Shown here: one piece after another, positions 12,629 through 31,368 of the stretch
How the letters are laid out: each line of letters opens with the position of its first letter
Position numbering within the stretch: the first letter of the stretch is position 1
From: an uncultured Pseudomonadota bacterium
GTDB lineage: Bacteria; Pseudomonadota; Gammaproteobacteria; Burkholderiales; SG8-39
Direction: 5' to 3'
DNA length: 64,000 nt
NCBI GenBank assembly: GCA_963817785.1
Contig: CAWFPL010000008.1
Location: 172,113 to 236,112, forward strand
Made by a program: the position numbers and the translations under genes
The notes under the pieces: model-generated
What the model was told of the DNA's origin: nothing
The model's input: the letters and a program-made list of their open reading frames with translations, nothing else
Database searches by the model: none

Positions 12629-12632
12629 TGGG

Positions 12633-15415: not shown

Positions 15416-15460
15416 GTTCGAGCCCTAGTCGGGGAGCCAACTGGATGCGAAACTGGGCAC
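15416..15460 (-). other. att junction of element A overlapping integrase 3' end; outer half resembles a tRNA-Asn 3' end
   Basis: GTTCGAGCCCTAGTCGGGGAGCCA followed by arm GCGAAACTGGGCAC. Confidence 0.75.
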
Positions 15461-17014
15461 GCCCGCCAGCGTGCCCGGTTTCTTTGCCGCCACCGCGTGC
15501 GCAAGCGCCGCATAGCTCCCGCGCATCTCAAGCTGCCGGTCCACGACGCGGATTTCGGACACCAGCAGCCGCAGGTATTGCTTGGCAAAGGGACGGTTCG
15601 CGCCGAGCCTCGATTTGAGAGCGCGCCCGAAGGCCTCGACCTGGCTCGCCTTGAGCGCCCTCAGAGGCGTTTCCGCCTGGCGCTTGAGTCCCGCGATCTC
15701 AAGCAGCACCTCCTGCCGCCTCGCCTGCAGCTTGTGCGCGCGTTCCTGAAGCGCCGCATCCAGGGGAAGGTGCCCCGACTCTACCGCCTCAAAGAGCCGC
15801 TCGCTGCGTGACTTCAGCTCGTTGAGTTCTTTGGCGAGTACCTTGAGCCGCGCGTCCTGCTCCGAATGCGTGTTCCGCATCCGCTCGCGCGCCCCGGCGA
15901 TCATGGACTTCAGCCGCTGCGGCGTGAACACCTTTTCGGCCAGGGCCTTGAGCACCAGCTCGTCGAGCTTCTCCATCGGGATGTTGCCGCTCAGGCAGCG
16001 CGTATTGCCCTTCGCAATGCGCGTCTGGCATTTGTAGTAGCGATACCGTCCGCCTTTGCCGGTCGCAAGCGTCATCCCGGCCCCGCAATGCCCGCACTTG
16101 AGAAGGCCGGTAAGCAGCGTGGGCGAGTTCACCACCCGCGGCGGCACCTTGGCCGGGGCGCGCGCCGCACGCAGCGCCTGCGCCCGCCTGTAGGTGCCTG
16201 CGTCGATGATCGGCTCGACGGCCACCCGGACCCACTCCGTTTCGGCCTTCACCTCGCCCGTCTTGTTGCTCGTGCGGTTAAAAACGTACTCGCCGCAGTA
16301 GGCGCTATTGGCGAGGAGGTTATGCACCTTGCCACGCGTCCACTTCTGACCCCGCAGACTCACGCCCTGGTCATTGAGAATCGCCGCAATGCCCTTCTCC
16401 CCGAGCGACGCACCCTTGTGGCCGTCCAGGTACAGATCGAACACCTTGCACACGATGGCTGCCTCGGCGGGGTCGATCTCCAGGCGCTTCTTCTTGCCCT
16501 TGCGGCCCGTCGCCTCCGTCTCCACCGTCCTATAGCCAAAGGGCGGTCGAGAGCCGTTGAAATAGCCCTGCCGGGCGTTTTCCTTCATCGCCCGCAGCGT
16601 GTGCTTGCCGTTCTCCTTGCTCTGGTACTCGTCGAACAGGCTAAAGATCGTGCGGGCCATCTCGCCCGCCGGGTCGTCGCTCGTTTGCTGCGTGATCGAG
16701 ATGACCTTTACCCCAGCGCGCTTGAGCGTGCGTTCGTAGCTGAGGAATTGAAACAGATCCCGGAAGAACCGCGAGCGGCTATGAACGATGATCGCCTCGT
16801 AGGGAGACGGCTCTAGCGTCGCCTCCGCAATCATCTGCTGGAACACCGGCCGCCGGTCGTCAGTGGCCGAAGCCCCAAGCTCCACGTATTCCACGGCGAC
16901 CGCGAGGCCATGGCCCTTGCACCAGTCCCGCATCTGGCGGAGCTGGTCGGGGATCGAGAGATCCTTTTCAGCCTGCTTCGTCGTCGATACCCGAGCGTAC
17001 AGCGCGACGGCCAT
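15425..17014 (-). CDS. Large serine recombinase (integrase), copy A
   Basis: YARVST catalytic Ser, SRSRFFR, PPFGY recombinase domain, LLKCGHCG..YYKC zinc ribbon, coiled coil; RBS AAGGAAAGGA. Confidence 0.95.
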   Translation of the reverse strand: MAVALYARVSTTKQAEKDLSIPDQLRQMRDWCKGHGLAVAVEYVELGASATDDRRPVFQQMIAEATLEPSPYEAIIVHSRSRFFRDLFQFLSYERTLKRAGVKVISITQQTSDDPAGEMARTIFSLFDEYQSKENGKHTLRAMKENARQGYFNGSRPPFGYRTVETEATGRKGKKKRLEIDPAEAAIVCKVFDLYLDGHKGASLGEKGIAAILNDQGVSLRGQKWTRGKVHNLLANSAYCGEYVFNRTSNKTGEVKAETEWVRVAVEPIIDAGTYRRAQALRAARAPAKVPPRVVNSPTLLTGLLKCGHCGAGMTLATGKGGRYRYYKCQTRIAKGNTRCLSGNIPMEKLDELVLKALAEKVFTPQRLKSMIAGARERMRNTHSEQDARLKVLAKELNELKSRSERLFEAVESGHLPLDAALQERAHKLQARRQEVLLEIAGLKRQAETPLRALKASQVEAFGRALKSRLGANRPFAKQYLRLLVSEIRVVDRQLEMRGSYAALAHAVAAKKPGTLAGVPSFASSWLPD

Positions 17015-17171
17015 GTCCTTTCCTTTCCACTGTGTCCCCGCCAATCCGCAGCTCGGCGAGGAGTTCCGGCAACACGGAGTAAATCAAGACCAGTTCCGCC
17101 TCCGACACCTTCGATTCGTCGAACCCTTCCCGATACCGAATTGCGAGTTTATCGGAATCCGTAATGGGCAC
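16968..17171 (-). CDS. Small hypothetical protein overlapping integrase start (copy A)
   Basis: 67-aa ORF conserved in copy B; AAGGAGG upstream. Confidence 0.65.
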   Translation of the reverse strand: MPITDSDKLAIRYREGFDESKVSEAELVLIYSVLPELLAELRIGGDTVERKGHGRRAVRSGIDDEAG

Positions 17172-17177
17172 GCATGG

Positions 17178-17405
17178 TCAACCTCCTTTCTTTGCGGTGT
17201 GGGCCTGCCCGTGCCCTATCCTATCCTTGTGCTCTTCGCGAAACACCCGTTCCAACTCCGACTCCAAGCCGCTACGCCCGAACTCGTCCAGGACGAGCTT
17301 ACGAAACGCTGCGAACTGGCCGGGCGCAAGCGCCAGCTCGCCGAATTCCAGGATGCGCTTCATCCGCGGTTTGATGAGGCCGAGGAGCGTATCGAGATCG
17401 ATCAT
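17178..17405 (-). CDS. Small hypothetical protein (copy A)
   Basis: MIDLDTLL..., ATGA-coupled to rep stop, conserved in copy B. Confidence 0.7.
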   Translation of the reverse strand: MIDLDTLLGLIKPRMKRILEFGELALAPGQFAAFRKLVLDEFGRSGLESELERVFREEHKDRIGHGQAHTAKKGG

Positions 17406-18598
17406 TGGCCAAGCTGCACGCACTGGATGCGCTTTGTCACATCGAGCCGCCAGGTGAGCTCGTCGTGCACCCTGCACAGCAAGCGTTGCAGCTCGGTGAG
17501 GGCCTTGTCATGGGGCATGCTGACCTGCCTTCGCTGCACGCAGCGCAGCGCCGCGAGCTGCTTGAGGTATCCGTTCAAGCTCAGGCCAATGCGGGCGATG
17601 CGCTCCTCGATTTGCCGCATCGGGTCGATGGCGCGATAGACCCCTTCGGCCTTGAATCGCTCGATTTGCCCCTGAAGATCGCGCCACAGCGGATGCAACG
17701 GCCAGCGCGAGCGGTTGCGGTCGCGCGTGCGTTTGCGCAGCGTGTCGTGCTCCGCGGCGAGGTAGCGCAGCAGCTCGCCCGCCTGGGCGTTCAGCTCGGC
17801 ATAGGTACGGATCCCGAAGCGGCGCAGGACCTCTTTACGAACCTGCCATTCGATGCGCCAGACGTCGCGGTCCTCACCCCACAGCTCGAAGAGCCAGACC
17901 TTCTCGCTTTGCTCAAAGATCTCGGCCACCTTGTCGTAGACGCGCAGCACCACCTCGTCCCGGCCGAAGGTGAAGGTCTGAACCGTGCCGTTTGCACGAT
18001 GTTGACTATCTTTCGTCGCGAGGCTGACAAACGCGTCCTCGTCGAAGTCCACCACGGGGAGGTGGTAATCGAAACAGAAGTCCACCCGCGAAAGCGTTTC
18101 CGGCCTGACGGGGGCGAATCCAATCCCCGCGGCCCATGCGAGAAACCGCCGATGGAGCGCCTCGGCGGGCTCGCGCCAGAGCGCCTCGCTGCGGCAGGTG
18201 ACGTAAAACGAGGGGTTGTTGAATTCCCCCAACTCGATGCGATAGTCGGCGTTGCTGAGCACGAACGGATAGCCCGAGGCGCTGCCGTGCGGGGCGAGCA
18301 GGAACTCCATGTCGCCGAGCTGGATCGGCTGCGGCTCGGGGGTCCTTGCCTCGCGTAGGCTCTCCCGCTGCGCGCGAAGTTGCACGAAGTCGATTTGCGC
18401 TTGGCCCCGAGGCAGCAAGTAGTAGGCGCACTGGATCGTGTCGATCCCGTGCAGCAGCAACCGCGGAGCGGGCGCCTTCGCTCGCTTCGAGGGAACCGCA
18501 GCCGCCTTACTCGGTGTCGTCCTCGTCGTCTTCAAGGCCAATCCCTTCCTCGTCCAGAATCTCATCCACCCACGCCCGCACCTCGGTGCGCGATTCAT
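17402..18598 (-). CDS. Rep_trans/MOBT-like rolling-circle initiator or relaxase (copy A; start uncertain)
   Basis: LHGIDT, LSRVDFCFD, TFTFG, LRVYDKVAE (candidate catalytic Tyr), VWRIEWQVR. Confidence 0.78.
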   Translation of the reverse strand: MNRAPRCGRGWMRFWTRKGLALKTTRTTPSKAAAVPSKRAKAPAPRLLLHGIDTIQCAYYLLPRGQAQIDFVQLRAQRESLREARTPEPQPIQLGDMEFLLAPHGSASGYPFVLSNADYRIELGEFNNPSFYVTCRSEALWREPAEALHRRFLAWAAGIGFAPVRPETLSRVDFCFDYHLPVVDFDEDAFVSLATKDSQHRANGTVQTFTFGRDEVVLRVYDKVAEIFEQSEKVWLFELWGEDRDVWRIEWQVRKEVLRRFGIRTYAELNAQAGELLRYLAAEHDTLRKRTRDRNRSRWPLHPLWRDLQGQIERFKAEGVYRAIDPMRQIEERIARIGLSLNGYLKQLAALRCVQRRQVSMPHDKALTELQRLLCRVHDELTWRLDVTKRIQCVQLGQ

Positions 18599-19403
18599 CC
18601 CCGGTCAGCGCCTTGAGCTCCTCGGTCACCACCGATTCAATGCGCCAGCGCTCGGATAAGTCCAGGTCCTCGATCGCCTCCAGCTCCTGCTCGGCGTACT
18701 CCAGGCCGTAACGCTGCAGTGCCTGCTGTCGCTGCGTGCGGGCCGCGGTCGCGTTCTGGCGCGCGAGCGCTTCGCCGTGGAGCCGGTCCCGGACTCCTTC
18801 GGCGATCTGCACCAGCTCTGCCTGAGGTAGCTCTTCGATAGGCAACGGAGCGAGCGCACGCTCGATCGCCTGGAGGATCTGCGCCTTGAGTTCCGTACTC
18901 AGGCGGTAACTGGCGGGCCAACGCTCCACGACGGCCTGCTTGGTGTCCTGGATAATCTGACGGCGCTTGGCCTTGTGCCGCTCCTTGGCTTCCTCGGCCC
19001 GGCGGCGCGATTCCGCCTCCAGGGCAGCGCTCGCCCGGGCGGCCTCGCGCTCGCGCTCGGGGGCGGCCCGAGCCGCGGCCTCGCGCGCCTGCTGCTCGGC
19101 CGCTGCGCGACGGCTCGCGTTCTCGCGGGCGTCCAGCTCCCCGTGCGCCTGGCGGATCTCGCGCAGCGTCAGGCGAAGCTTCTCCGCCGACACCTGCTGG
19201 CGCATCTTGGTCACGGGGTCGAAGTCCTCGGCTGGCAGATCAAAGGACGCGCCCGCCGGGGACTGCGTAGGCATGCCGCCGGCTGCCTCAGGCAGGAGCG
19301 CTTGCCTAGGGGCTCTGCCTAGATAGGCAGCGCATGCCTTGAGGTGCGCGCGCACGCCTTGCCTGCTGCCGAATTCCTGTCCGCAGAAGCGGCATACCGC
19401 CAT
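18507..19403 (-). CDS. Hypothetical protein: N-terminal C2HC zinc finger, coiled coil, acidic tail (copy A)
   Basis: CRFC..F.S.QGVRAHLKAC; Ala/Glu/Arg-rich helix; conserved in copy B. Confidence 0.75.
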   Translation of the reverse strand: MAVCRFCGQEFGSRQGVRAHLKACAAYLGRAPRQALLPEAAGGMPTQSPAGASFDLPAEDFDPVTKMRQQVSAEKLRLTLREIRQAHGELDARENASRRAAAEQQAREAAARAAPEREREAARASAALEAESRRRAEEAKERHKAKRRQIIQDTKQAVVERWPASYRLSTELKAQILQAIERALAPLPIEELPQAELVQIAEGVRDRLHGEALARQNATAARTQRQQALQRYGLEYAEQELEAIEDLDLSERWRIESVVTEELKALTGDESRTEVRAWVDEILDEEGIGLEDDEDDTE

Positions 19404-19573
19404 GACCCATGCCCTCGAAGCTGAAGCGACCGCTTTCCCATTTCGAGAAAGCCGCCGGGGCGAGGCCCTATGGGCCCGCCCCGCGGCGCACCGCGTTCAG
19501 TTGTCCCGACTCAGTGCGGGTGGCTGCGGTGCAGCGCTGAATCTGCGGCGCTTCGGCGATGGCGTCAAAGCAA

Positions 19574-20455
19574 TTAACCTCCCTCTTGCACGGGGGGTTT
19601 GCTCCGGGGCGCGGGTTTTTCTACTGCGTCGAGCAGGGGTCGAAGATCGGCGTGGTGCCAGCCAGCTTGTCGCAGCGCGATGCGAAGCACCTCCTTGAAT
19701 GGGCCGCGGCGCAGCGATGACAAGCGCGCGCCGAATCCCGCTTTGGCGAGCTTGTGAAATTCGACGACGAAGCCCTGCGCGCGCGGGGTGCGCGGCCGCC
19801 CACCGCTAGAATTGCGTGACACCGGGATAGATGCGGCATACGACAGCAGGCTTTGAAGCTTCGGAAGATTCTTCTCGAATTGGCCAAGCGATTCCAGTGG
19901 GTCGGGATATCTGATTCTGATTCCATGCAAATGCGTTGGCCTGCTTTCCAGTACCGAGCTCCAGGCCGCGGATAGCCGCGTGTGGCCAGGGAAATATTCG
20001 CGAGCCTTTGCATAGGCGGCGATCAGCTCTTCCGCCTTCTTCTTGGCGCGCTCAAGATGCGTAATCGCCTCGCGCTCACTGCGCAGCGTGTCTCGATCTT
20101 GTAAGCGCAAGATCTGGTACGTGCCGATCAGACGCACCAGCTCATCGATGAAGGGTTCGCTATTTGCCGTGAGCTCCGATCTATCCAGCAATGCGGCAAT
20201 TTCCAGGCGAACCTGCGGCGGCATTTGGTAGCTGAGCCGCTGCACCCCGACGCCTGATAGTGCGCCAACGTAAGTGACTGAAGGCGTCTGTTCGGGCGGA
20301 TTTATCGAAGCAGCGGCAGGTGAGCTGTCGGATGAGAAATCCGGCATTGGACTGCCGGTCGCTGATGGTGTGGCACCGGACCTATCAGAAGGTCCTTTGA
20401 TGCGTGCTTGGGCAGCCCGCTTGACTCTCACCGGCTTCGACTTTCGCATGTGCAA
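19574..20455 (-). CDS. Hypothetical protein (copy A backbone)
   Basis: 293-aa ORF intact in both copies; GGRPR motif. Confidence 0.7.
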   Translation of the reverse strand: MHMRKSKPVRVKRAAQARIKGPSDRSGATPSATGSPMPDFSSDSSPAAASINPPEQTPSVTYVGALSGVGVQRLSYQMPPQVRLEIAALLDRSELTANSEPFIDELVRLIGTYQILRLQDRDTLRSEREAITHLERAKKKAEELIAAYAKAREYFPGHTRLSAAWSSVLESRPTHLHGIRIRYPDPLESLGQFEKNLPKLQSLLSYAASIPVSRNSSGGRPRTPRAQGFVVEFHKLAKAGFGARLSSLRRGPFKEVLRIALRQAGWHHADLRPLLDAVEKPAPRSKPPVQEGG

Positions 20456-20520
20456 AGCCCTCCCTTCGAGCCGCTAAACGCCGCAAGACCCTATCCCATG
20501 CCGCATGACGGCTGCCCTGG

Positions 20521-20654
20521 ACGGCGGCCCTTGACTGTGGGGCCCGGGCGCCTGTGTTGGCCGCTTGCGACCTTGCCGGGGTGCCCTGCGGGCACCCCGC
20601 GCAAGCTCGCTTGACGCTAACACAGGCGCCTACCCTCAGATCAAGGGCCGCCGT
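20521..20654. other. 134-nt imperfect hairpin, candidate single-strand origin (copy A)
   Basis: Nested stems ACGGCGGCCCTTGA/TCAAGGGCCGCCGT, GGCGCCTGTGTTGGC/GCTAACACAGGCGCC, CGGGGTGCCC/GGGCACCCCG. Confidence 0.6.
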
Positions 20655-20668
20655 AGAATGTATCCGTA

Positions 20669-20694
20669 GCCCCCCGTGTTACACGAACGGGGGC
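20669..20694 (-). other. Candidate nick site (dso/oriT), copy A
   Basis: GCCCCCGTTCGTGTAACACGGGGGGC: C-run, TAACA, G-run like Tn916/ICEBs1 MOBT oriT. Confidence 0.6.
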
Positions 20695-20715
20695 CAAACG
20701 CCGCAGACCAATCAT

Positions 20716-21513
20716 ATGACCGTGCTGATTATTGCTGTCCTCTGCGTGGTGATTGCATATGCGTTGCTGAAATATATGCTCTACGCCCGCCGATACTCGG
20801 CCGCACTCAACGTAGTGCTAGCAAAAGTTACATTCGAGCGACTGCTCCCGACCAAGCAGGCTGAGGTCAATTCGAAAGCACACGAGATCCTGGCCCGTCT
20901 AATGACGCGCCCCCCGGAGACCTTCGAGACAGAGGTACATCGCTTTGGTTGGTACGCCCTCGCAATGGCCGAGTTAGGAATTCAGCCTGCATTTGAGGAA
21001 CCGAGGTGGATCCTTATACCTAATCCCTTCCTCGCCGTTGTCCCTGGCGATCCAGCCTTTAAGAGAATTGTTAAATACTTGAAGCGCAAGTATGGCATCG
21101 ATATCCAATTGAAGAACGAGAAGTGCCCCGAGATTAAAGTCGAGGAGAAACCGAAACCGGCAGGGCCGAGAAACCGCACGTACTTGGACGAATTTAATGA
21201 GGTCGCCGGTAGCGTTATAGTGGGTGGTTACCGGACAATCGCATCGCGGCAAGGATGCGCCCCGTCGGCAAGAACAACGGATGAAAAGATCGTTCAAATT
21301 TACGTCCAGGTCGGCAGCGCATTTCAGGAGGCTGCCAAACAGCGTGGCGAGCACATTCCCGCACAAGTACTTAACTTCGTCGTGCTGCATTTCTTGCAGC
21401 TTTATGAAACGGCAGACGAGCAAATGTTTCATGAACACCTACGCTACGAGATCGCGAACTATCTGAAATCTGGGCTCCGCACTGACTACCAGCGTGAGCT
21501 TCCCTTGATTTAG
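20716..21513 (+). CDS. Cargo A1: membrane-anchored hypothetical protein
   Basis: N-terminal hydrophobic helix; visibly lower GC than backbone. Confidence 0.7.
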   Translation: MTVLIIAVLCVVIAYALLKYMLYARRYSAALNVVLAKVTFERLLPTKQAEVNSKAHEILARLMTRPPETFETEVHRFGWYALAMAELGIQPAFEEPRWILIPNPFLAVVPGDPAFKRIVKYLKRKYGIDIQLKNEKCPEIKVEEKPKPAGPRNRTYLDEFNEVAGSVIVGGYRTIASRQGCAPSARTTDEKIVQIYVQVGSAFQEAAKQRGEHIPAQVLNFVVLHFLQLYETADEQMFHEHLRYEIANYLKSGLRTDYQRELPLI

Positions 21514-21602
21514 ACGGCCGCATCGAGCGCAAATCGACCTTCGTCTACGCGACCGAGTTATCCGACCTTTGGCCCGGCTATTACACGCAGAGGGCTCTGA
21601 CA

Positions 21603-22022
21603 ATGGACGAGGAAGACTATACGCGGTTTAGCAAGTGGCAAGACGTCACCCGCGAACAACTCGGTGCAACGTCGAACCTCCTTCTCGGCCTTGCCACCGG
21701 CCTACTAGGTTTTACTACCGTGCTCCTTCTTGATCGCAGGCTAATCGTTTCATGCGCTTTCGGTTTCGGCGTTACAGCGTCGATCCTTCTCGCATTGTCA
21801 GTAGCCCTTGCACTCTGGTGCACAACAAATCGGCTCGCAGATTTCCGTCTAACGGCGAAAATCGCACATCCGAAGACTTGCAACAGTCAACGCGATGAGT
21901 TGCGGGAAGCATCAAAGCATCTCGGCGAGCGCACGTGGGGCATTTTCCGTGGTCAAGTATGGAGTTTCGCATTCGGTGCCGGCGCTATTGCCGTCGGTAT
22001 CATCATCCAGGTATTTTCGTAG
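21603..22022 (+). CDS. Cargo A2: small membrane protein with ~3 TM helices
   Basis: Three hydrophobic segments; ends just before att. Confidence 0.7.
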   Translation: MDEEDYTRFSKWQDVTREQLGATSNLLLGLATGLLGFTTVLLLDRRLIVSCAFGFGVTASILLALSVALALWCTTNRLADFRLTAKIAHPKTCNSQRDELREASKHLGERTWGIFRGQVWSFAFGAGAIAVGIIIQVFS

Positions 22023-22136
22023 CGATTATCACGGTAGCCCCCGACGCTTCGAGAGAGACGCCCTCCCAGCAGGCTTCGCTCGAGGGCTGGGCAATTCGCG
22101 AGAAATACGTTAGCTAACCGGCACCCGAACGATCCA

Positions 22137-22176
22137 GTGCCCACCTTCGCCCCGGTTGGGGAGCCAAGAATAGGGC
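22137..22176 (-). other. att junction, cargo end of element A
   Basis: Arm GTGCCCACCTTCGC + core GGGGAGCCA. Confidence 0.75.
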
Positions 22177-22462
22177 ATTTTTCACGTAAGTAGGCACTTC
22201 AAGCCGAAACCCTGTAGGCGCCATGAAGGCAATCGCGGCGCCCGACGCGCTGAACATCGCCCAAAGGTGGCACACGGGGCGTCTTTTCGCACAAGGCACG
22301 ATGTCGAACGACCCTGACGGAAGGGCCCCTCGAGGATCGTTCAGAAGCCGCCAGGAGCGACGCGCCCCCGGGCCGCTACCAAAGAGGAGACCGCACCGCG
22401 CACCGTAGCATCCAGCCTCCGCCTCGGGTACGCTCGCAGGCATCGCGGAAAAAGGACGGGGT

Positions 22463-22825
22463 ATGGACTCCATTGAGGCGCTCTGGTCGATCGTCTTTGC
22501 ATCGAACGTACAGCTGCTGCCCGGACAACCGTCGGCGGGCGGCGGCATCGTCGTGTTCGAGACCGGCCGCGTCTTCGGCGGGGATTCGACGATGATCTAC
22601 GTTGGTCGCTACCGCTTCCCGCCGGAGAGCAAGCACTTGGAGGCCGAGGTCGAGGTCAACAGGTTCCTCGCGGGAGGCGTCTCCGTATTCGGGGCCATCG
22701 ACCACTTCCACCTCAAGCTCACGGGGCAGTACCAGCGCGATCGCTTTGTGATGGAGGGGCACATGGTCGAGAACCCGGCGCAGCGGATCGCGATCGAGTT
22801 CGTGAGGCGCGCAGAGCTGCCGTAG
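22463..22825 (+). CDS. GrlR-family beta-barrel protein
   Basis: GGGIVVFETGRVFGGDSTMIYVGRY matches the GrlR-like G.G..v..G.i.GGD....Y.G pattern; AAGGA RBS. Confidence 0.6.
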   Translation: MDSIEALWSIVFASNVQLLPGQPSAGGGIVVFETGRVFGGDSTMIYVGRYRFPPESKHLEAEVEVNRFLAGGVSVFGAIDHFHLKLTGQYQRDRFVMEGHMVENPAQRIAIEFVRRAELP

Positions 22826-22836
22826 GTCGAGCCGCG

Positions 22837-23341
22837 ATGGAATCGCAGCACGCCAACCTGCCACCCGGGCGCCCGGCGCGCCGCGCAGGACGAAGGCGCT
22901 CGTGCGCGGGGGTCGCTGCAGCGATCGTGCTGGGCTTCTTGCCGCTGCTGGTCCGCGCGCAGCAAAGTGACGCAGCCTCGCGCCTCCATCATGCTCGAAC
23001 TCTGAAGTTGTCAATTTGGCACCGGAACCGTTACCCAATGGGAGAAAGGCAAGCCCACAGTCCGCAGCATGTCCGGGGACAGTGAAGCGGTGTTCGACGC
23101 AATTGACCTTAAGAAACACACGGCGCGCGTTATTGGCAGCGTCGGAGCCGACGATGTTGTGGCGTTGCCGACCTTGGTCGGGGTTTCTTTCATCGAGTCA
23201 GGCGCGGTCTTTTCTACGACGACTGTGTTCTCGACATCGGCAGGCGCCGACGCGTTCCTCGCGGTCGACAGCAGGCAAGATAAGTTCGCCGGCACGACTT
23301 TCGCCGAACAGTACCCCGGGATTTGCAGAATCTTGCAGTGA
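22837..23341 (+). pseudogene. Secreted hypothetical protein split by +1 frameshift near 23008
   Basis: Signal-like VAAAIVLGFLPLLVRA; removing one T joins to CQFGTGTVTQWEKGKP...YPGICRILQ. Confidence 0.55.
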
Positions 23342-23571
23342 GCCCGAGTCCATACGACACCCGCGACGCAACCGAGCACGCCCAGGTCGTCGCGCTCCTC
23401 GAGCGGCTCCCCGCCCAGCACCCGGCGCGCGCGGCCTACGCCCGTGGCACCGGCACGCTGGAGCTGACGCACCTGGTCGCCGATCGCTCCGAGCTGGTCG
23501 AGGAACTTAAGGAAGCGTGGCTCGCCGGCTACCGGCGGCTGCTTGCGCGGTCGAGCGGATTTAGGCCGTAG
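23338..23571 (+). CDS. Hypothetical protein (77 aa)
   Basis: GTGA overlap with upstream stop; GC-rich third positions. Confidence 0.5.
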   Translation: MSPSPYDTRDATEHAQVVALLERLPAQHPARAAYARGTGTLELTHLVADRSELVEELKEAWLAGYRRLLARSSGFRP

Positions 23572-23628
23572 TCCCAGGGCCCGTGTTGGGCCACTCCAGG
23601 CACGTAAATTCCCGCCAACAGTACTCGC

Positions 23629-23672
23629 GTTCGAGCCCATTCTGGCTCCCCGAGGAGGGCAGAACTGGGCAC
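23629..23672 (+). other. att junction, cargo end of element B
   Basis: Core TGGCTCCCC + arm GCAGAACTGGGCAC. Confidence 0.75.
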
Positions 23673-23794
23673 TGGGTGGTTAGGGTCGAACTACGCTTAG
23701 GCTCATGTTACCTGGACGGTGCTGGGCAAGTGTAGAGCGGTCGGAAGCGCTCCCGCCCTTGAGCAGTCGTTGTTGGGCGTGTCGTTAGCACTCT

Positions 23795-24556
23795 TCATCG
23801 GTCCACGTTCTGTTTGTTAATTACGGCATTTCGCTTCAGGAATCGAATCAGAATGGTTTCGAACTTCTTTCGCAGTTCCGCCTCGGGTACCTTGATGTAT
23901 GCGGCCGTCGTGACGATGGGCGCCTTGAACCAGAACTTTTCCTCGTGCTCTTGAATTCGCTTTCTAATGCTTGTCCCTTGGCCTACGTAGATCGGGCGTT
24001 CTGAGATGTCATACAGGACATAGATGCCGGGAACGTCGGGCCAATCGTCTTTATCTAGCGGATCGAACTCGAAGAATTCCCCGACCCCCTCGACGGTAGC
24101 TTCATCGCGGATCTCTTGCTTCGTCTCTGCGGGAACCTCTTGTTCTAACGCCTTCTCAAGCCGGCGAACAGTTTCGACACGCGGATTCTCAATGCGCCCG
24201 GACTCAATGTTATATATGGCCGGAGCAGAAACATCTGCCTTTGCTGCCAACTCGCCAACCGACAAGCGCCGTTCCAAACGAACGCGGTTCAGCCATGAGC
24301 CGAAGGCGGATGGACCAGACTCCTGCTCTGTTCCGTCTTCGTCGCGTGCCTTTTGATCCGCGGCATTGTTTGTTCGCGATAACCCTAGTACCTCGCGGAT
24401 GTGGGCTTTCTGGGAACGATCTGGTATGACTTTGTCGTTCTCCCAGTTCGAGATCGTCATCTGGCTCACATCGAGCTTCTCGCCGAGCTCGCTTTGAGAC
24501 CAAGCGTTCTTGATGCGCGTCCGGCGCATTCGCTCGCCGAATGAGATATTGGCCAT
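23795..24556 (-). CDS. Cargo B2: tandem XRE-type HTH domains + GIY-YIG nuclease
   Basis: Two HTH (SQSELGEKLDVSQMTISNWE; SVGELAAKADVSAPAIYNIESG); PGIYVL..PIYVGQ..IRKRIQEH..E..N. Confidence 0.85.
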   Translation of the reverse strand: MANISFGERMRRTRIKNAWSQSELGEKLDVSQMTISNWENDKVIPDRSQKAHIREVLGLSRTNNAADQKARDEDGTEQESGPSAFGSWLNRVRLERRLSVGELAAKADVSAPAIYNIESGRIENPRVETVRRLEKALEQEVPAETKQEIRDEATVEGVGEFFEFDPLDKDDWPDVPGIYVLYDISERPIYVGQGTSIRKRIQEHEEKFWFKAPIVTTAAYIKVPEAELRKKFETILIRFLKRNAVINKQNVDR

Positions 24557-24632
24557 AGCTCACAGACCTCCTGGAGGAAATTGTCCGTGCTAGTCGCGGC
24601 ATTCAACTGGTCCGCGCGGCATACCGGTTAAA

Positions 24633-24983
24633 TCAAGACTGCCGATCGCGTATGAACTCGTACACTTCATTTGGCGAATGAACGACGAAGCTATCAGCGT
24701 TTCCAGGCGTCTTGTCTGCTGCAATGGATCGAAGAGCCTGCAAGAGTCTTACCGACACGGGCGTGATGTCTTGGGACGCTAACGACGGATTGACCTTTAT
24801 GACTTCGGACAGCATTCGGTCCGCATCGTGGCGACTCATGAAGAAGCGGACAGGCCGTCGACCGGGATAACGGTTGTCGGGGATCGTGAGGTATTTACCA
24901 CTTGGCTTCGACTGGAGGACCCACGCCTCGGAGGTTTCCGAGAATTCAGATAGGACAGTATCGAGGGGTAGCGGTCGCGCCAT
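24633..24983 (-). CDS. Cargo B1: hypothetical protein
   Basis: 116-aa ORF co-oriented upstream of the GIY-YIG gene. Confidence 0.65.
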   Translation of the reverse strand: MARPLPLDTVLSEFSETSEAWVLQSKPSGKYLTIPDNRYPGRRPVRFFMSRHDADRMLSEVIKVNPSLASQDITPVSVRLLQALRSIAADKTPGNADSFVVHSPNEVYEFIRDRQS

Positions 24984-25054
24984 CGGTTTGCGTGCTTCTG
25001 TCGTAGTCTAAGTTGAAGTAGCCGGCCTGCAGTCCAAGATCCAGCAAACCCACG

Positions 25055-25080
25055 GCCCCCGAGCGTGTAACACGGGGGGC
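25055..25080 (+). other. Candidate nick site (dso/oriT), copy B
   Basis: GCCCCCGAGCGTGTAACACGGGGGGC. Confidence 0.6.
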
Positions 25081-25094
25081 TTCGGATACATTGT

Positions 25095-25228
25095 ACGGCG
25101 GCCCTTGATCTGAGGGTAGGCGCCTGTGTTAGCGTCCAGCGAGCTTGGGCGGGGTGCCCGCAGGGCACCCCGGCAAGGTCGCAAGCGGCCAACACAGGCG
25201 CCCGGGCCCCACAGTCAAGGGCCGCCGT
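25095..25228. other. 134-nt imperfect hairpin, copy B
   Basis: Homolog of 20521-20654. Confidence 0.6.
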
Positions 25229-25293
25229 CCAAGGCAGCCGTCATGCGGCATGGGATAGGTTCTTGCGGCGTTTAGCGGCTCGAAGGGAGGGCT

Positions 25294-26178
25294 TTGCACA
25301 TGCGAAAGTCGAAGCCGGTGAGAGTCAAGCGGGCCGCTCAAGCACGCGTCAAAGGACCTTCTGATAGGTCCGGTGCCACACCATCAGCTACCGGCAGTCC
25401 AATGCCGGATTTCTCATCCGACAGCTCACTTGCCGCCGCTTCGATAAATCCGGCCGCACAGACGCCTTCAATCACTTACGTTGGCGCGTTGTCGGGCGTC
25501 GGCATGCAGCCGCTCAGCTACCAAATGCCGCCGCAGGTCCGTCTGGAAATTACCGCATTGCTGGATAAACTGAAGCTCACGGCAAATAACGAATCCTTCA
25601 TCGATGAGTTGGCGCGCCTGATCGGCACGTACCGGATCTTACACTCACAAGATCGAGACACGTTGCGCAGTGAGCGCGAGGCAATTACGCATCTTGAGCG
25701 CGCCAACAAGAAGGCGGAAGAACTCATTGCTGCCTACGTAGAGGCTTGCAAGTATTTCCCCGGCCACACGCGGCTGTCCGCAGCCTGGAGCTGGCTACTG
25801 GCAAGCAGGCCAACGCATTTGTATGGGATTCCAATCAAGTATCCCGATACGCCTTCGGAGTCACTTGGCCACTTCGAGAAGAATCTTCCGAAGCTTCAAA
25901 GCCTGCTGTCGTGCGCTGCATCCATGCCGATTTCTCGCAGTTCTACGGGCGGCCGACCGCGCAACCCGCGTGCGCAAGGCTTCGTCGTTGAATTTCGCAA
26001 GGTCGCTACAGAGAGATTCGGTGCGCGCTTGCCATCGCTTCGCCGCGGCCCATTCAAGGAGGTGCTCCGCATCGCGCTGCGAGAAGTTGGCTGGCACCAC
26101 GCCGATCTTCGGCCCCTCCTCGACGCAGTAGAAAAACCCGCGCCCCGGAGCAAACCCCCCGTGCAAGAGGGAGGTTAA
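25294..26178 (+). CDS. Hypothetical protein (copy B backbone)
   Basis: Homolog of 19574-20455. Confidence 0.7.
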   Translation: MHMRKSKPVRVKRAAQARVKGPSDRSGATPSATGSPMPDFSSDSSLAAASINPAAQTPSITYVGALSGVGMQPLSYQMPPQVRLEITALLDKLKLTANNESFIDELARLIGTYRILHSQDRDTLRSEREAITHLERANKKAEELIAAYVEACKYFPGHTRLSAAWSWLLASRPTHLYGIPIKYPDTPSESLGHFEKNLPKLQSLLSCAASMPISRSSTGGRPRNPRAQGFVVEFRKVATERFGARLPSLRRGPFKEVLRIALREVGWHHADLRPLLDAVEKPAPRSKPPVQEGG

Positions 26179-26348
26179 TTGCTTTGACGCCATCGCCGAA
26201 GCGCCGCAGATTCAGCGCTGCACCGCAGCCACCCGCACTGAGTCGGGACAACTGAACGCGGTGCGCCGCGGGGCGGGCCCAGAGGGCCTCGCCCCGGCGG
26301 CTTTCTCGAAACGGAAGGGCGTCGGTTGCAACGTCGAGGGCATGGATC

Positions 26349-27245
26349 ATGGCGGTATGCCGCTTCTGCGAAAAGGAATTTGGTAGCAGGCAGGCGGTGC
26401 GCGCGCACCTCAAGGCATGCGCTGCCTATCTAGGCAGATTCACAAGGCAGGCGGCGTTGCCTGAGGCAGCCGGCGCCATGCCTACGCAGTCTCCGGCGGT
26501 CGCGTCCTTTGATCTGCCCGCCGAGGACTTCGACCCCGTGACCAAGATGCGCCAGCAGGTGTCGGCGGAGAAGCTTCGTTTGACGCTGCGGGAGATCCGC
26601 CAAGCGCACGGGGAGCTGGACGCCAAGGAGCAGGCGAGCCGTCGCGCCGCGGCCGAGCAGCAGGCGCGCGAGGCCGCGGCCCGGGCCGCCCCCGAGCGCG
26701 AGCGCGAGGCCGTCCGGGCGCGCGCTACCCTGGAGGCGGAATCGCGCCGCCGGGCCGAAGAAGCCAAGGAGCGGCACAAGGCCAAGCGCCGTCAGATTAT
26801 CCAGGACACCAAGCAGGCCGTCGTGGAGCGTTGGCCCGCCAGTTACCGCCTGAGTACGGAACTCAAGGCGCAGATCCTCCAGGCGATCGAGCGTGCGCTC
26901 GCTCCGTTGCCTATCGAAGAGCTACCTCAGGCAGAGCTGGTGCAGATCGCCGAAGGGGTCCGGGATCGGCTCCACGGGGAAGCGCTCGCCCGTCAGAGCG
27001 CGTTGGAGGCCCGCACGCAGCGACAGCAGGCACTGCAGCGTTACGGCCTGGAGTACGCCGAGCAGGAGCTGGAGGCGATCGAGGACCTGGACTTATCCGA
27101 GCGCTGGCGCATTGAATCGGTGGTGACCGAGGAGTTCAAGGCGCTGACCGGGGATGAATTGCGCGCCCAGGTGCGGGCGTGGGTGGATGACATTCTGGAC
27201 GAGGAAGGGATCGGCCTTGAAGACGACGAGGACGACACCGAGTAA
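26349..27245 (+). CDS. Zinc-finger/coiled-coil hypothetical protein (copy B)
   Basis: Homolog of 18507-19403. Confidence 0.75.
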   Translation: MAVCRFCEKEFGSRQAVRAHLKACAAYLGRFTRQAALPEAAGAMPTQSPAVASFDLPAEDFDPVTKMRQQVSAEKLRLTLREIRQAHGELDAKEQASRRAAAEQQAREAAARAAPEREREAVRARATLEAESRRRAEEAKERHKAKRRQIIQDTKQAVVERWPASYRLSTELKAQILQAIERALAPLPIEELPQAELVQIAEGVRDRLHGEALARQSALEARTQRQQALQRYGLEYAEQELEAIEDLDLSERWRIESVVTEEFKALTGDELRAQVRAWVDDILDEEGIGLEDDEDDTE

Positions 27246-27884
27246 GGCGGCTGCGGGTCCCTCGAAGCGAGCGAAGGCGCCCGCTCCGCGGTTGCTGCTG
27301 CACGGAATCGACACGATCCAGTGCGCCTACTACTTGCTGCCTCGGGGCCAAGCGCAAATCGACTTCGTGCAACTGCGCGCGCAGCGGGAGAGCCTACGCG
27401 AGGTGAGGACCCCCGAGCCGCAGCCGATCCAGCTCGGTGACATGGAGTTTCTGCTCGCCCCGCACGGCAGCGCCTCGGGCTACCCGTTCGTGCTCAGTAA
27501 CGCCGACTATCGCATCGAGTTCGGGGAATTCAACAACCCCTCGTTTTACGTCACCTACCGCAGCGAGGCGCTCTGGCGCGAGCCCGCCGAGGTGCGGATT
27601 TCAGCGATCGCGGACGCTGATTTCAGCGTGATCGCGGACGGTGTTTCATCGTGATCGTGGACGATCAACGGGCCGCGGGAGTGACGGGGTTTATCTTATC
27701 GTAATCGTCCACGATCAGGTTGAAACGCAGCTCGGTGCCGATGCGCCGAAGGCGGTTCGGTGCTCGTGTCGCGGGGCGCAGGCTTGTCCACGGCGGCGGG
27801 CGGCGCCTGCGACGCACGAACGCCGCGGTGGGCAAGCCGTGTGGAGGAGCATGACGTTGGTGCTCGCCGGATTGCGCGAAGCGC

Positions 27885-28625
27885 TCATGCTTTGCCCTCG
27901 TGTTCGCGCATCGACTTGTTGCCCTTCAATGCGATGCGGTGCGCGGCGTGCACGATGCGATCGAGGATGGCGTCGGCCAGCGTCGGGTCGTCGAGCCAGG
28001 CGTGCCAGGAATTGACGGGCAACTGGCTCGTGATGAGCGACGAGCGCGAGCCGACGCGATCGTCGAGGAGCTCGAGCAGGTCGTTGCGCTCGCCCGGGCC
28101 GATCGGGGCGATAGCGAAGTCGTCCAGCGCGAGCAGGTCGATGCGGGCGAGCTGCGCCAGGCGCCGGCCGAAGCTGCCGTCGCCGTGGGCGACGCGCAAC
28201 TCCTCGAGCAGCCGCGGGGCGCGAGCGTAGAGCACGGTGAAGCCCAGGCGGGCTGCCTGCTGAGCGAGCGCGCACGCCAACCAAGTCTTGCCCGTACCGG
28301 TGGCACCGGTGATCAGGACGTTGCGGCCGTGGCGCAGCCAGTCGCCGCCGGCGAGCGCGCTGATCAGCGCCCGATCCAGGCCGCGTGAGACTCGCCAGTC
28401 GATGTCCTCGATGCAAGCGCTCGAGACCTTCAGGCGCGCAGCCTTCAGAAGTCTGGTGAGGCGCTTGGCGTCGCGCCAGTCGAGCTCGCGCTGCACGAGG
28501 AGTGCCAGGCGTTCCTCGAACGGCAGCGCCGCGGCTGCGCTCGTGCTCGCCGGGTCCTCGAGCGCGTGCACGATGCCGTCCAGGCGCAGGCTGCGAAGTT
28601 GTTCCAAGGTGTGTTCGTTAAGCAA
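27885..28625 (-). CDS. istB: IS21 helper ATPase
   Basis: GATGTGKT Walker A, LLALDDF, ITSQLP, DAILDR. Confidence 0.93.
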   Translation of the reverse strand: MLNEHTLEQLRSLRLDGIVHALEDPASTSAAAALPFEERLALLVQRELDWRDAKRLTRLLKAARLKVSSACIEDIDWRVSRGLDRALISALAGGDWLRHGRNVLITGATGTGKTWLACALAQQAARLGFTVLYARAPRLLEELRVAHGDGSFGRRLAQLARIDLLALDDFAIAPIGPGERNDLLELLDDRVGSRSSLITSQLPVNSWHAWLDDPTLADAILDRIVHAAHRIALKGNKSMREHEGKA

Positions 28626-28644
28626 GGTAGGTCTCCTTCGTGGG

Positions 28645-30198
28645 TCAGTGGTAGTACTCGGGGCCGCGCACGTTCTCGTGCAGCGGCAGGGTCTTCTGGG
28701 CGGGGGCCTCGGCGCTGGCGCTCTGTCGATCCAGGCCGGCGGCCAGGATCGAGGCGACGCTGCGGTAGGTGGGCGAGCCGATCGCCAGTGCTCGCGCGCA
28801 GGCGGCTTCCAGCCGTTCGGGGCCGAGCTGGCGCACCAGGCGCTTGAGGCCCAGGCACGCACGGTAGCCCTGCTCAGGATGCGGGCGGTGCTCCAGCTGC
28901 CAGCGCACGAGCGCCGCGCACTGCGCGCCGATGCGCTCGCCCCAGGCAATGAGCTTGGCCGGGGTCCACTCCAGGTGCGCGCGGTGCGAGGCCGGCATGT
29001 GCTCGGGCAGCGTCGTGTGCCTGCCCTGCAGGCGGCTATAGACGTGGCAGGCCACGCGGCTCTGGCCGAGGAACGCCTCGACCGTGGTGTCGGTCACGCG
29101 CACCTCGAGCTGGGCGTGCACCAGCCGATGCGGCACGCTGTAGAAGTGCCGATCGACCTCGAAGTGGTAGTCGATGTTCACGCGTGCGCGCACGAAGCGC
29201 GCGATCACCATGCGCGTGGCCGGCAGCGGCTTGAGCGCCGCACGATCCAGCGCCTCGAAGGCGCTTCGCCGAGTCCCGGGCAGCTTCTTGAAGGGCCGCG
29301 CGTTCAACTGCACGAGCAGCTCGGCGATCGCCGCGTTCGCCTCGGCCAGGCTGAACAGGCGCCGGTGGCGCAGGCGCGCGAGGATCCAGCGCTCGACCAC
29401 TTGCACGCCCACCTCGACCTTGGGCTTGTCGCGGGGATGCGCGGGCCGCGCCGGAAGCACGACCGTCGCGTAGTGGGCGCAGAACTCCTCGACCAGCCGG
29501 CTCGAGGTCGGCTCGTAGCGGTCGGGGTGCGCAATGAGCGCGCGCGTCTGGTCGGGCACGATCAGCCGCGTCACGCCGCCGATGAACTCCAGCGCCGCAA
29601 TCAGTGCCCCGATCCAGTCGGCCGCCGTCTGCGTGGCGGTGGCACACGCGTAGGTGAAGTTCGACGCCCCCAGCACCGCGACGAACACCTGCGCGGGCCG
29701 GATCTCGCCGGTGTCGGCGTCGATGATCGGAAGCGTCTGGCCAGCGTAGTCGACGAACAACCGCTCGCCGGCGGGGTGGGTCTGGCGCATCGAGCGCTTC
29801 AGGCGCGCCGCCCAGGCGCGATACTTCACGCAGAAGCTCGTGTACTTGTAGGCCGATTCGCCCGCCTGGGCGTGCGCGCGCTGGTACTCCTCCCAGAGCA
29901 GCTGCAGCGTCACCCCGGGGCGCTTGAGCTCCTGGTGGATGAGGGCGTAGTCGGGCTCGAGCTGGTGGCTGGAGCGCGCGACCGGCGCTCGGTAGAGCCG
30001 GTGCTCGAGCTCCTCGTCCGAGAGCGTCTGGGCCAGCGCCCAGTCCACGCCAGCGGCGCGCGCGAGCAGCACGATCTTGCCCACCGTGGCCTTGGCCATC
30101 GGGATGGCGCGGGCCACTTGGGCGTAGCTCAGGCCTGCTTCGAGGTGCAGGCGAAGGGTCTGTCGAATCTGGCGCATCGTGATCCTGGGTGTGGGCAT
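28645..30198 (-). CDS. istA: IS21 transposase
   Basis: GERLFVDYAG, IVPD, PRDKPKVE, FYSVP motifs. Confidence 0.93.
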   Translation of the reverse strand: MPTPRITMRQIRQTLRLHLEAGLSYAQVARAIPMAKATVGKIVLLARAAGVDWALAQTLSDEELEHRLYRAPVARSSHQLEPDYALIHQELKRPGVTLQLLWEEYQRAHAQAGESAYKYTSFCVKYRAWAARLKRSMRQTHPAGERLFVDYAGQTLPIIDADTGEIRPAQVFVAVLGASNFTYACATATQTAADWIGALIAALEFIGGVTRLIVPDQTRALIAHPDRYEPTSSRLVEEFCAHYATVVLPARPAHPRDKPKVEVGVQVVERWILARLRHRRLFSLAEANAAIAELLVQLNARPFKKLPGTRRSAFEALDRAALKPLPATRMVIARFVRARVNIDYHFEVDRHFYSVPHRLVHAQLEVRVTDTTVEAFLGQSRVACHVYSRLQGRHTTLPEHMPASHRAHLEWTPAKLIAWGERIGAQCAALVRWQLEHRPHPEQGYRACLGLKRLVRQLGPERLEAACARALAIGSPTYRSVASILAAGLDRQSASAEAPAQKTLPLHENVRGPEYYH

Positions 30199-30258
30199 GA
30201 CCGTCCGAAAAAATCGGCCAGCATGCCTGACAGTCAGGTCACTCGCGCGCCCCGCGAT

Positions 30259-30370
30259 CGTCCACGATCAGCTTGAAACGCCGTCCACGATCAGTCTGAA
30301 ACGGCGTCTACGATCAGCCTGAATTGCCGTCTACGATCCTCTGAAATGACCGTCTACGATGGGCTGAAAT
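30259..30370. repeat. Five ~23-bp tandem IS21 subterminal repeats
   Basis: CGTC(C/T)ACGAT....TGAA repeated five times. Confidence 0.8.
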
Positions 30371-31324: not shown

Positions 31325-31368
31325 GGCACGGGCAGGCCCACACCGCAAAGAAAGGAGGTTGACCATGC

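Follow-up and report, generated by a model that had tools for sequence, protein, structure and literature searches.

A hairpin resembling the nick sites of Rep_trans initiators borders the defence-gene slot of a compact family of integrative elements

Two inverted copies of an integrative element, designated A and B, were analysed in a 64,000-nucleotide (nt) stretch of DNA (the window; positions 172,113 to 236,112 of contig CAWFPL010000008.1) from an uncultured Pseudomonadota bacterium. In each copy a conserved backbone, which carries the genes of a candidate rolling-circle initiator (Rep) and of a large serine recombinase, ends at a short GC-rich hairpin. This sharp boundary at the hairpin was confirmed to generalise to unrelated genomes. 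By strong inference from its sequence and setting, the hairpin is the nick site of Rep, serving as double-strand origin (dso), origin of transfer (oriT) or both. Comparison of relatives showed the DNA from the hairpin to the P' arm of the attachment (att) site to behave as a replaceable slot of 0.7-5 kb, filled in relatives mostly with anti-phage defence genes; judged by predicted gene content, the family is a compact carrier of such genes. That the nick hairpin forms the edge of a defence-cargo slot can be said much more firmly than how the cargo was exchanged. With the inferred exchange route included, the statement of an initiator element with a nick hairpin and a cargo slot is, as a whole, on balance probable.

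The hairpin as the boundary of homology and of the cargo slot

Each of the 26-nt stems occurs once in the window, and none of 100 shuffled sequences contained the motif. The stems form the inner tips of a large inverted repeat, whose arms (15428-20695 and 25054-33112) make up four collinear blocks of 92-94% complementarity, with a 2.8-kb insertion (27587-30375) in the second, right arm. From the repeat and its gene content, A and B are predicted to be two inverted copies of an integrative element of ~6.7 kb. The order of its parts is attL, cargo, a GC hairpin with a GTAACAC loop, a long palindrome, two open reading frames (ORF1 and ORF2), Rep, the large serine recombinase and attR; 14 nt separate the nick hairpin from the long palindrome.

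The homology between A and B runs one base past the stem (G at 20695 and 25054) and then stops. The DNA between hairpin and att, ~1.45 kb in each copy (20696-22159 in A, 23650-25053 in B), was compared by blastn and tblastx, and no significant similarity was found between the two stretches except ~21 nt of the att arm. Thus the initial annotation, which had quoted both stems and described the copies as unrelated from one base past the stem to att, was confirmed by exact match and by these searches. A contig of metagenome run X1 spans the junction of cargo B and hairpin (24206-25123). Two more copies lie on another contig of the same genome: C4-1, with a Rep 93% identical to that of A, and the complete copy C4-2, with a Rep 56% identical. 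In all three other copies of this genome the homology to A starts at query bases 1772-1775, which are the first bases of the hairpin.

To map the boundary among relatives, a protein-similarity scan was carried out with one genome per species, which gave 158 relatives, of which 80 loci were kept. These loci and the four copies of the genome itself were compared all against all. At least 150 nt were shared across the hairpin in 18 pairs; the pair L076/L077, the same element cut by a contig end, was dropped. The left end of homology in the remaining 17 pairs lay at 0, -9, -1, -4, +9, -2, +2, +2, 0, +1, +1, -35, +2, 0, +1, 0 and +11 relative to the first C of the hairpin. The breakpoints, the mapping of which the initial annotation had proposed as a check, were thus not scattered: they fell within 4 nt of that base in 13 of the 17 pairs and at -9, +9, +11 and -35 in the other four. 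The pairs represent about nine unrelated groups, kin not being independent, and have backbone identities of 64-96%. To the left of the boundary they match again in just ~60 nt at attL, which is reached at unequal distances (3.1 against 1.2 kb; 2.0 against 3.8 kb).

The contents of the slot were then compared. Its size was 0.67-4.9 kb in the 28 loci with an attL call, and most of its ORFs lie on the strand opposite to rep. When the larger slot ORFs were scanned with PADLOC and Pfam, matches to defence families were obtained in 11 of 19 loci and nothing recognisable in the other 8. The matches comprised a dCTP deaminase (1e-165), a retron II-A reverse transcriptase with NDT, a Pycsar cyclase with a transmembrane effector, DRT8 (9e-120), a PD-T4-6-like kinase, PDC-M36A (8e-240), PDC-S31, PDC-S52, PDC-S60, SIR2-STAND and a caspase. 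The slot call at L097 is probably wrong, as there are host-like genes inside it.

In the window, both cargoes point outward from the hairpin. The two ORFs of cargo A had no match in Pfam or PADLOC. The 253-aa protein of cargo B has two helix-turn-helix (HTH) domains (Pfam HTH_3, 1.8e-18) and a weak GIY-YIG match (6e-4); PADLOC matched the HTH parts, with PDC-S14 at 1.4e-6. Cargo ORFs often begin 20-150 nt from the hairpin (20696-20716 and 24983-25054 in the window; slots of L033-L112). Since cargo genes often start near the hairpin and almost always read away from it, a cargo promoter may lie in or beside the conserved origin block. A scan of 20350-25400 for consensus sigma-70-like promoters found no site, a result with no bearing on the mode of cargo expression.

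Beyond the origin block, on the side away from the cargo, a second variable segment is present. From the hairpin through the palindrome A and C4-1 are alike; ~1 kb of unrelated DNA that includes ORF1 follows, and the likeness returns from ORF2 to Rep (88-93% for hairpin region and ORF2-Rep, 91% for the DNA from ORF2 through Rep, 88% protein identity for ORF2). No Pfam family was found for ORF1 or ORF2 of A. The C4-1 counterpart of ORF1 (G000 C4:148296-149003, L006:8296-9003) is unrelated to that of the window (19574-20455), and the ORF1 place in relatives is often taken by small proteins of several unrelated types, ribbon-helix-helix-like by eye alone. C4-1 itself (G000 C4:148126-151283, L006) has the hairpin, a shortened palindrome, the different ORF1, ORF2 and an intact Rep, and is without the recombinase. 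C4-1 was considered as a natural hybrid and rejected, as the element breaks off behind rep and a CHASE-PAS-GGDEF-EAL gene of host-like type comes next.

The hairpin, Rep and the attachment sites

The hairpin is 26 bp long. Its GC-rich arms measure 7 bp each, and the 12-nt loop includes a (C/G)T'AA sequence, in the window as part of GTAACAC. In these dimensions, and in its xTAA loop, it is like the MOBT oriT of ICESt3, ICEBs1 and Tn916 and like pT181-type dso as they are described in the literature consulted. The nic element of ICESt3 is reported as 26 bp: the two halves of a perfect, GC-rich 7-bp inverted repeat enclose 12 bases, among them the conserved CT'AA. For ICEBs1 the nick is placed, like that of Rep_trans plasmid origins, within the loop of a hairpin that is conserved and rich in GC (PMC9371924). 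The arrangement is also shared with the MOBT/Rep_trans systems so described: a protein of Rep_trans fold with a Y-x-K-x-x-E motif is encoded downstream of the hairpin in the same direction, and a second inverted repeat follows the hairpin (IR2 in ICESt3). The resemblance of the stem to a MOBT oriT, noted in the initial annotation, is supported by the length, arms and loop size of this published design and by the neighbouring Rep_trans-fold protein with its YDK motif.

A motif of the form C3-7..TAACA..G3-7 was found upstream of rep, on the rep strand, in 68 of the 80 loci, mostly at a distance of 350-900 nt. Among the other 12, L110 and L112 carry the motif further upstream, seven have less than 1 kb of upstream sequence, and three show none. 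The long palindrome is a candidate Rep binding site or single-strand origin. In ICESt3 the binding site of the relaxase RelSt3 is given as the second inverted repeat, 68 bp downstream of nic (PMC9371924). Strong structure to the right of the hairpin was seen in 9 of 18 loci sampled.

A sister Rep family (~470 aa, about 23-30% identity to the window Rep) bears on the assignment of the hairpin. Its loop, TAGTAACACA, is invariant while the stem differs between members, with compensatory changes in 5 of 7 pairs. In the stem 90.5% of cells were paired, against 25-37% in slid controls, a value reached in none of 500 shuffles. The sister-family hairpin lies within the rep reading frame, where the loop encodes P-S-N-T; the origin of pT181 is also located within its rep gene. 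No serine recombinase was found in the 1.5-kb flanks of the sister family at any of 18 loci. Since this family keeps the hairpin without a serine recombinase in its flanks, the hairpin is linked to Rep rather than to the recombinase. Two of the sister loci were examined further, L117 (G293 C1:674000-692000) and L118 (G212 C1:680000-698000), and in both a tyrosine integrase gene follows rep; the sister loci otherwise are L014-L032.

The structural model points to the Rep_trans fold for Rep. An AF2 model built on a 12-sequence alignment (predicted local distance difference test, pLDDT, 78.6; predicted template modelling score, pTM, 0.70) was searched with Foldseek. The top six matches were to 4cij (E 2.4e-10 to 1.1e-9), 4cwc and 4cwe, the three solved Rep_trans initiators, with E values up to 2.7e-6 overall and probability 1.00; the next-ranked matches were TBP-like, with E above 1e-3. 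Seven of 12 Rep homologues match Pfam Rep_trans at E up to 0.1, the best at 6.9e-7. The residues invariant among the 12 homologues are S170-R171-x-D173, D177, R219, Y221-x-K223-x-x-E226 and W247-R248-x-E250. Motif III of RelSt3 is reported as Y252-K254-E257, its Tyr and Lys being essential (PMC6499999), and the spacing of Y221, K223 and E226 in Rep equals it. The invariant D53, D173/D177 and E250 are candidates, by alignment, for the three acidic metal ligands of motifs N', I and IV, E250 being at Tyr+29 as against +28 in RelSt3. No HTH family was found by Pfam in Rep or its homologues, and residues 7-40 have pLDDT below 50 and no helices in the model.

TGGCTCC cores were found at 15433-15439 (-), 22160-22166 (-), 23643-23649 (+) and 33101-33107 (+). 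The outer two sit within the 3' ends of the recombinase genes, and the outer homology stops in the last codons of these, after GCATCCAGTTGGCTCC; each mid-window core is followed by an arm ending TGGGCAC. These cores bear out the placing of the cargo slot between hairpin and att in the initial annotation. The rejoined ends of A read GTGCCCAGTTTCGCATCCAGTTGG-CTCC-CCAACCGGGGCGAAGGTGGGCAC, an imperfect palindrome with P and P' arms complementary at 19 of 24 positions (by eye), and fit the attP expected of a serine integrase. The flank beyond attR of A is a 24-nt copy of a tRNA 3' end, and intact tRNAs elsewhere in the genome end with the same core. A tRNA finder run on the window found no tRNA gene there, the att flanks being just tRNA-like fragments. 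L106 lies at an apparently complete tRNA 3' end (by eye).

In the relatives, att sites were sought by motif scan. A P-type arm was found 3.3-3.9 kb to the right of the hairpin in ~50 of them, and a P'-type arm 0.67-4.9 kb to its left in many; attL was found in just ~30 loci, the call at L097, at least, probably being wrong. A core variant, TGGCGC, changes jointly in attL and attR of the same element in L060, L078, L089, L091 and L108, with L097 as a doubtful sixth case; this joint change at both ends supports the att assignment. Contigs of four metagenome runs placed on 15000-33500 showed no excision, circle or hybrid junction, rare forms being invisible to contigs.

Arrays of copies were also observed. 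C4-1 and C4-2 have the same orientation, L063 and L065 lie on one contig, and several attL-like sites occur in L096 and L108. At L106:5132-9690 an orphan unit of an att-like site, cargo and hairpin, without rep or recombinase, lies directly upstream of a complete element; between this unit and the next att-like site there are ~730 nt. To the right of B's attR core, the DNA of 33101-33135 (ACAACCATTGCAAATCTGGACAT) is like the family P' arm consensus and not like tRNA, so that the junction is attP-like. B may adjoin a remnant of another element; to the right of B there is no hairpin or rep, but an IS200-type tnpA (33455-33967).

Domain and family assignments for the remaining features are listed with their coordinates below. 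All three domains of the serine recombinase scored above the Pfam cut-off, and its gene directly follows rep in 74 of 80 relatives. In copy B an IS21-family element splits rep into 27154-27586 and 30376-31139. A contig of run X4, from another metagenome, joins 27586 straight to 30376 with flanks ~95% identical, as expected of the uninterrupted site, and 27587-30375 is for this reason read as an insertion. No virion genes were recognised by Pfam among the element ORFs, and no Rfam family was found in 15000-33600 at E up to 0.1. Two close matches were obtained among 2.9 million viral contigs. A phage or satellite nature of the element was considered and found unsupported; the viral-contig match L113 is an integrated piece whose left end lies immediately to the right of the hairpin.

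Features of elements A and B in the window, and loci of relatives with an additional hairpin. Positions are those of the window unless a locus is named.
Feature	Position	Strand	Remarks
Element A, complete copy	15428-22166	-	Inverted repeat with B; TGGCTCC cores at both ends; Pfam gene content
Element B	23643-33112	+	Inverted repeat with A; backbone 92-94% identical to A, other cargo, IS21 within rep
Large serine recombinase A, 539 aa	15425-17044	-	Pfam Resolvase 3.5e-28, Recombinase 4.4e-17, Zn_ribbon_recom 1e-17
Large serine recombinase B, 554 aa	31496-33160	+	attR (core 33101-33107) in 3' end of gene
Rep A, 398 aa	17402-18598	-	Candidate Rep_trans-fold rolling-circle initiator/relaxase; motif R219-V-Y221-D-K223-x-x-E226
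ORF2 A, 298 aa	18507-19403	-	N-terminal Cys/His motif, acidic tail; conserved in B and C4-1
ORF1 A, 293 aa	19574-20455	-	Second replaceable backbone position; no Pfam family
Long palindrome A	20508-20667	-	~135 nt paired, imperfect; nested inverted repeats; single-stranded DNA fold -80.6 kcal/mol, z -10.6
Long palindrome B	25083-25240	+	Single-stranded DNA fold z -9.7
Hairpin A, GCCCCCGTTCGTGTAACACGGGGGGC	20669-20694	-	Presumed Rep nick site (dso/oriT); outer edge of conserved backbone
Hairpin B, GCCCCCGAGCGTGTAACACGGGGGGC	25055-25080	+	
Cargo A	20696-22136	+	ORFs 20716-21513 and 21603-22022, each for a predicted membrane protein; both directed outward from hairpin
Cargo B	23795-24983	-	253-aa protein (23795-24556) and 116-aa ORF (24633-24983), reading away from hairpin
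attR of A, P arm GTGCCCAGTTTCGCATCCAGT and core TGGCTCC	15433-15460	-	Inside 3' end of recombinase gene
attL of A, core 22160-22166 and P' arm CCAACCGGGGCGAAGGTGGGCAC	22137-22166	-	
attL of B, core TGGCTCC and P' arm CCGAGGAGGGCAGAACTGGGCAC	23643-23672	+	
Segment between A and B, 1476 nt	22167-23642	.	Outside both elements
IS21-family insertion	27587-30375	-	istA 28645-30198, istB 27885-28949; Pfam rve, Mu-transpos_C_2, IstB_IS21; terminal inverted repeats
Extra hairpin, Nitrospira-type members	L040:7300-7400; L106:6650-6760, 9590-9690; L107:9580-9680; L110:2360-2460; L112:6290-6390		

Outside the elements, ~215 nt of the segment between them (23355-23569) have four further matches in the genome (C8, C2, C4), with 71-76% identity, and none in Rfam. 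To the left of A (9532-15290), genes for radical SAM, ATP-grasp ligase, 2OG-Fe(II) oxygenase and nitroreductase-family proteins could be a peptide-modification cluster. The region is rich in insertion sequences, with a DUF772 transposase (5017-6177) and a DDE_3 ORF (46460-47218). Two inverted repeat pairs of 82-83%, at 6490-8657 and 59058-60169, belong to copies of another element, whose ORF at 6567-7151 has transposase-type HTH domains.

Routes of cargo exchange and alternative explanations

The initial annotation had proposed that the slot is bounded by the two sites at which the element's DNA is broken, nic and att, and that cargo is exchanged by Rep and integrase rather than by homologous recombination. 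The hairpin edge and the position of the slot held. The att edge was not supported, as the homology ends 45-60 nt to the inner side of the crossover core, and nothing shows the proposed role of the enzymes. The slot abuts what appear to be functional blocks.

The route by which Rep could exchange cargo would be as follows. Rep would nick the loop near GT/AAC, and replication or transfer would proceed rightward, first over ORF1, rep and the recombinase gene, next over att and finally over the cargo, the direction being presumably that of ICEBs1. Cargo would be swapped when related elements share one chromosome, with the crossover within or at the edge of the origin block. Initiation at the nick of one element and termination at that of the next would yield a circle that combines the backbone of the first with the cargo of the second and carries a P-P' att. 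The integrase would serve to build the arrays and to integrate the hybrid. Free CTXphi genomes are described as arising by a process like rolling-circle replication between tandem prophages, RstA nicking the apical loop of a hairpin (PMC4439123). Directly oriented copies, such as C4-1/C4-2 and those of L106, exist in the family. RelSt3 is reported to perform strand transfer, and its substrate without the 5' arm yields no strand-transfer product (PMC9371924); because of this, the whole hairpin is probably needed. The formation of hybrids by rolling-circle synthesis from nick to nick is put forward tentatively, as the likeliest of the possible routes.

Several observations weigh against a nick-driven exchange, or against parts of the case for it. 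A and B are inverted, which makes nick-to-nick synthesis between them impossible. The end of homology at the edge of a block under selection is expected under any recombination mechanism: with the left arm under selection, as the need of RelSt3 for the 5' arm implies, homology would extend to the outer edge of that arm under any mode of crossing over. At the att side, homology persists over 45-60 nt on the inner side of the core and ends where the P' arm does. Three pairs were aligned there, and in two of them, L084/L086 and L060/L108, the similarity of this arm is about that of the backbone, so that nothing places a crossover at the att core. Only A and B, with 1 difference in 28 positions of the P arm and 8 in 30 of the P' arm, hint that the P' arm travels with the cargo. 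The ORF1 swap seen between A and C4-1 recurs in L084/L086, L060/L108, L035/L099 and L063/L065, and exchange at the nick site cannot produce a variable segment to the right of the origin block. No pairs sharing cargo and not backbone were found among the 84 sequences. In Nitrospira-type members the nick hairpin has another hairpin, of ~30 nt, immediately to its left. The stem of this extra hairpin exists as CCGCCCGATCCGGC.. or CTCCGCGCCGC.., with pairing preserved in both, and the boundary is at the outer edge of the extra hairpin, -36. In the sister loci L117 and L118 a weakly conserved ORF precedes rep and the defence cargo lies beyond it, more than 1 kb from the hairpin, so that a defence slot need not touch the nick; this cargo comprises TIR-TM, PDC-M36A-like and SIR2/ThsA-like proteins and a BamHI-type (type II) restriction-modification pair. 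Rep A scored 20.8 bits (E 3.3e-4) against Pfam Rep_trans (PF02486), below the curated cut-off of 29.6, and a profile search of PDB sequences gave 4cij alone, weakly, at E 0.39. No nicking, replication, excision or transfer has been observed, and the whole case rests on sequence.

These observations could equally be attributed to shuffling of modules. Rep would still nick the hairpin, but RecA or short-homology recombination between conserved blocks (origin, att arm, rep) would exchange both cargo and ORF1, and homology would seem to end at the hairpin because no block under selection lies further out. Variable segments on both sides of the origin block agree with this explanation, which accounts better for the ORF1 swaps; so do the boundary at the inner edge of the P' arm and not at the core, its shift to -36 where an extra conserved hairpin is present, the sister-family defence slot without contact to the nick, and the several copies often found in one genome. 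It is harder to reconcile with the length of the conserved block to the left of the nick, just ~13 nt, and of the whole hairpin, 26 nt. Such lengths are at or below that usually needed for efficient RecA exchange. Nor does it readily explain the absence of scars from earlier cargo, or a homology that stops within 4 nt of the hairpin in 13 of 17 pairs. Between the hairpins of A and C4-1, 4 of 13 bases differ to the left of GTAACAC and 0 of 60 to its right, which fits a crossover in the loop, though the left loop bases may vary freely. Recombination between conserved blocks is thus an explanation to be entertained with similar reserve, and we give it and the nick-to-nick route about equal weight.

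Two further explanations concern the hairpin and the boundary themselves. The hairpin could be another signal, such as a terminator or insulator that separates divergent units, a site of the recombinase or of a directionality factor, or a single-strand origin, with Rep acting elsewhere, for example at the long palindrome. The lack of biochemical data, the very stable palindrome 14 nt away and the loop GTAA in place of the MOBT CTAA leave room for this. It is nevertheless very improbable, as the hairpin travels with Rep: loop and covarying stem are retained in the sister family, whose flanks are without a serine recombinase at 18 of 18 loci and which has a tyrosine integrase next to rep at the two loci examined. 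In addition, the stem is not followed by a T-run, a terminator scan of 20350-25400 found none at the hairpins, the genes on both sides read away from it, and structure to the right is present in only half of the sampled loci while the hairpin itself is near-universal. An assembly artefact or a chance feature of two copies could likewise give a sharp boundary, since the DNA may be of metagenome origin, where repeats misassemble, and the contigs of the best-matching run are short. We attach almost no probability to it: the same boundary is seen in C4-1 and C4-2, which lie on another contig, and again in genomes that are independent and come from many lineages, the run X1 contig spans the junction, and the motif is absent from all the shuffles.

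The most far-reaching version of the nick-driven exchange would make these elements an undescribed class of minimal integrative rolling-circle elements, each a single-slot defence carrier reloaded by Rep through nick-to-nick cassette exchange. They would combine a Rep_trans-type Rep with a large serine recombinase, or with a tyrosine recombinase in the sister group; the recombinase would make the P-P' att and the integrase would insert the circle at a tRNA end. The class would range over Proteobacteria, Nitrospirota, Desulfobacterota, NC10 and Armatimonadota. In this full form the proposal is unlikely.

Relation to known elements and significance

Against the MOBT systems several differences were noted. 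The window loop reads GTAACAC and not CTAA, Rep is without the N-terminal HTH of most MOBT relaxases, and its Pfam score is below the cut-off. In most MOBT relaxases that HTH binds IR2 of oriT. MOBT relaxases work with a TcpA-type coupling protein and a type IV secretion system; no gene for either was found among the element ORFs, helpers elsewhere not having been searched for. The family occurs in Gram-negative hosts, among them Burkholderiales, Geobacter and Nitrospira, whereas MOBT is, in the sources consulted, described as a family of Firmicutes.

The Rep_trans/MobT integrative mobilizable elements (IMEs) of streptococci are closer in build. They too are small integrated elements with a site-specific recombinase, a rolling-circle initiator or relaxase and few cargo genes, and are often located at the ends of tRNA or ribosomal-protein genes, as their survey describes them (PMC5704250). 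Unlike the window family, the Rep_trans elements tabulated in the consulted part of that survey have tyrosine integrases and Firmicutes hosts, and no fixed slot abutting nic is described there (PMC5704250). The window family has instead a large serine recombinase, with the attP core within the 3' end of its own gene.

CTXphi/RS1 of Vibrio cholerae resembles the family as an integrated rolling-circle replicon whose initiator nicks an apical hairpin loop and whose synthesis is reported to run from copy to copy, so that parts of two adjacent copies can be joined (PMC4439123). It differs in being a filamentous phage, integrated at dif by host XerCD and unable to excise, whereas the window elements encode a serine recombinase themselves. 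The products of tandem CTXphi are reportedly hybrid genomes, a result ascribed to Davis and Waldor in 2000. In the window family the formation of hybrids is hypothetical.

The slot is also like the defence hotspots of other mobile elements, pipolins among them, which are described as having a conserved mobility backbone and one position where unrelated defence systems replace each other. P4-like satellites and SXT integrative and conjugative elements (ICEs) carry defence hotspots. Unlike these, the window family has a backbone of Rep_trans initiator and serine recombinase in just ~4.3-4.6 kb, and its slot usually holds one system and has the nick hairpin and the attP' arm as edges. In ICEs and IMEs of six clinical species, defence genes are reported to lie close to oriT (bioRxiv 10.64898/2026.01.13.699239).

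A literature search on MOBT/Rep_trans oriT and on Rep_trans with serine recombinase, which had most subscription journals outside its coverage, returned no description of the family. It is apparently a widespread and previously undescribed one, compact, with a backbone of ~4.5 kb and the 158 relatives distributed over several phyla. The eight slots without a recognisable gene, out of 19, make it a cheap place to seek new defence genes. The MOBT/Rep_trans type of nick hairpin would be extended to Gram-negative lineages. The family also offers a testable case of whether rolling-circle initiators, besides recombinases and homologous recombination, shape the mosaics of integrated elements. If exchange from nick to nick is true, it would be a simple way for defence genes to change between backbones with different integration or host specificity. 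If the most far-reaching version holds as well, MOBT-like nick sites would be neither confined to Firmicutes nor devoted to transfer only, and would also drive the shuffling of defence genes.

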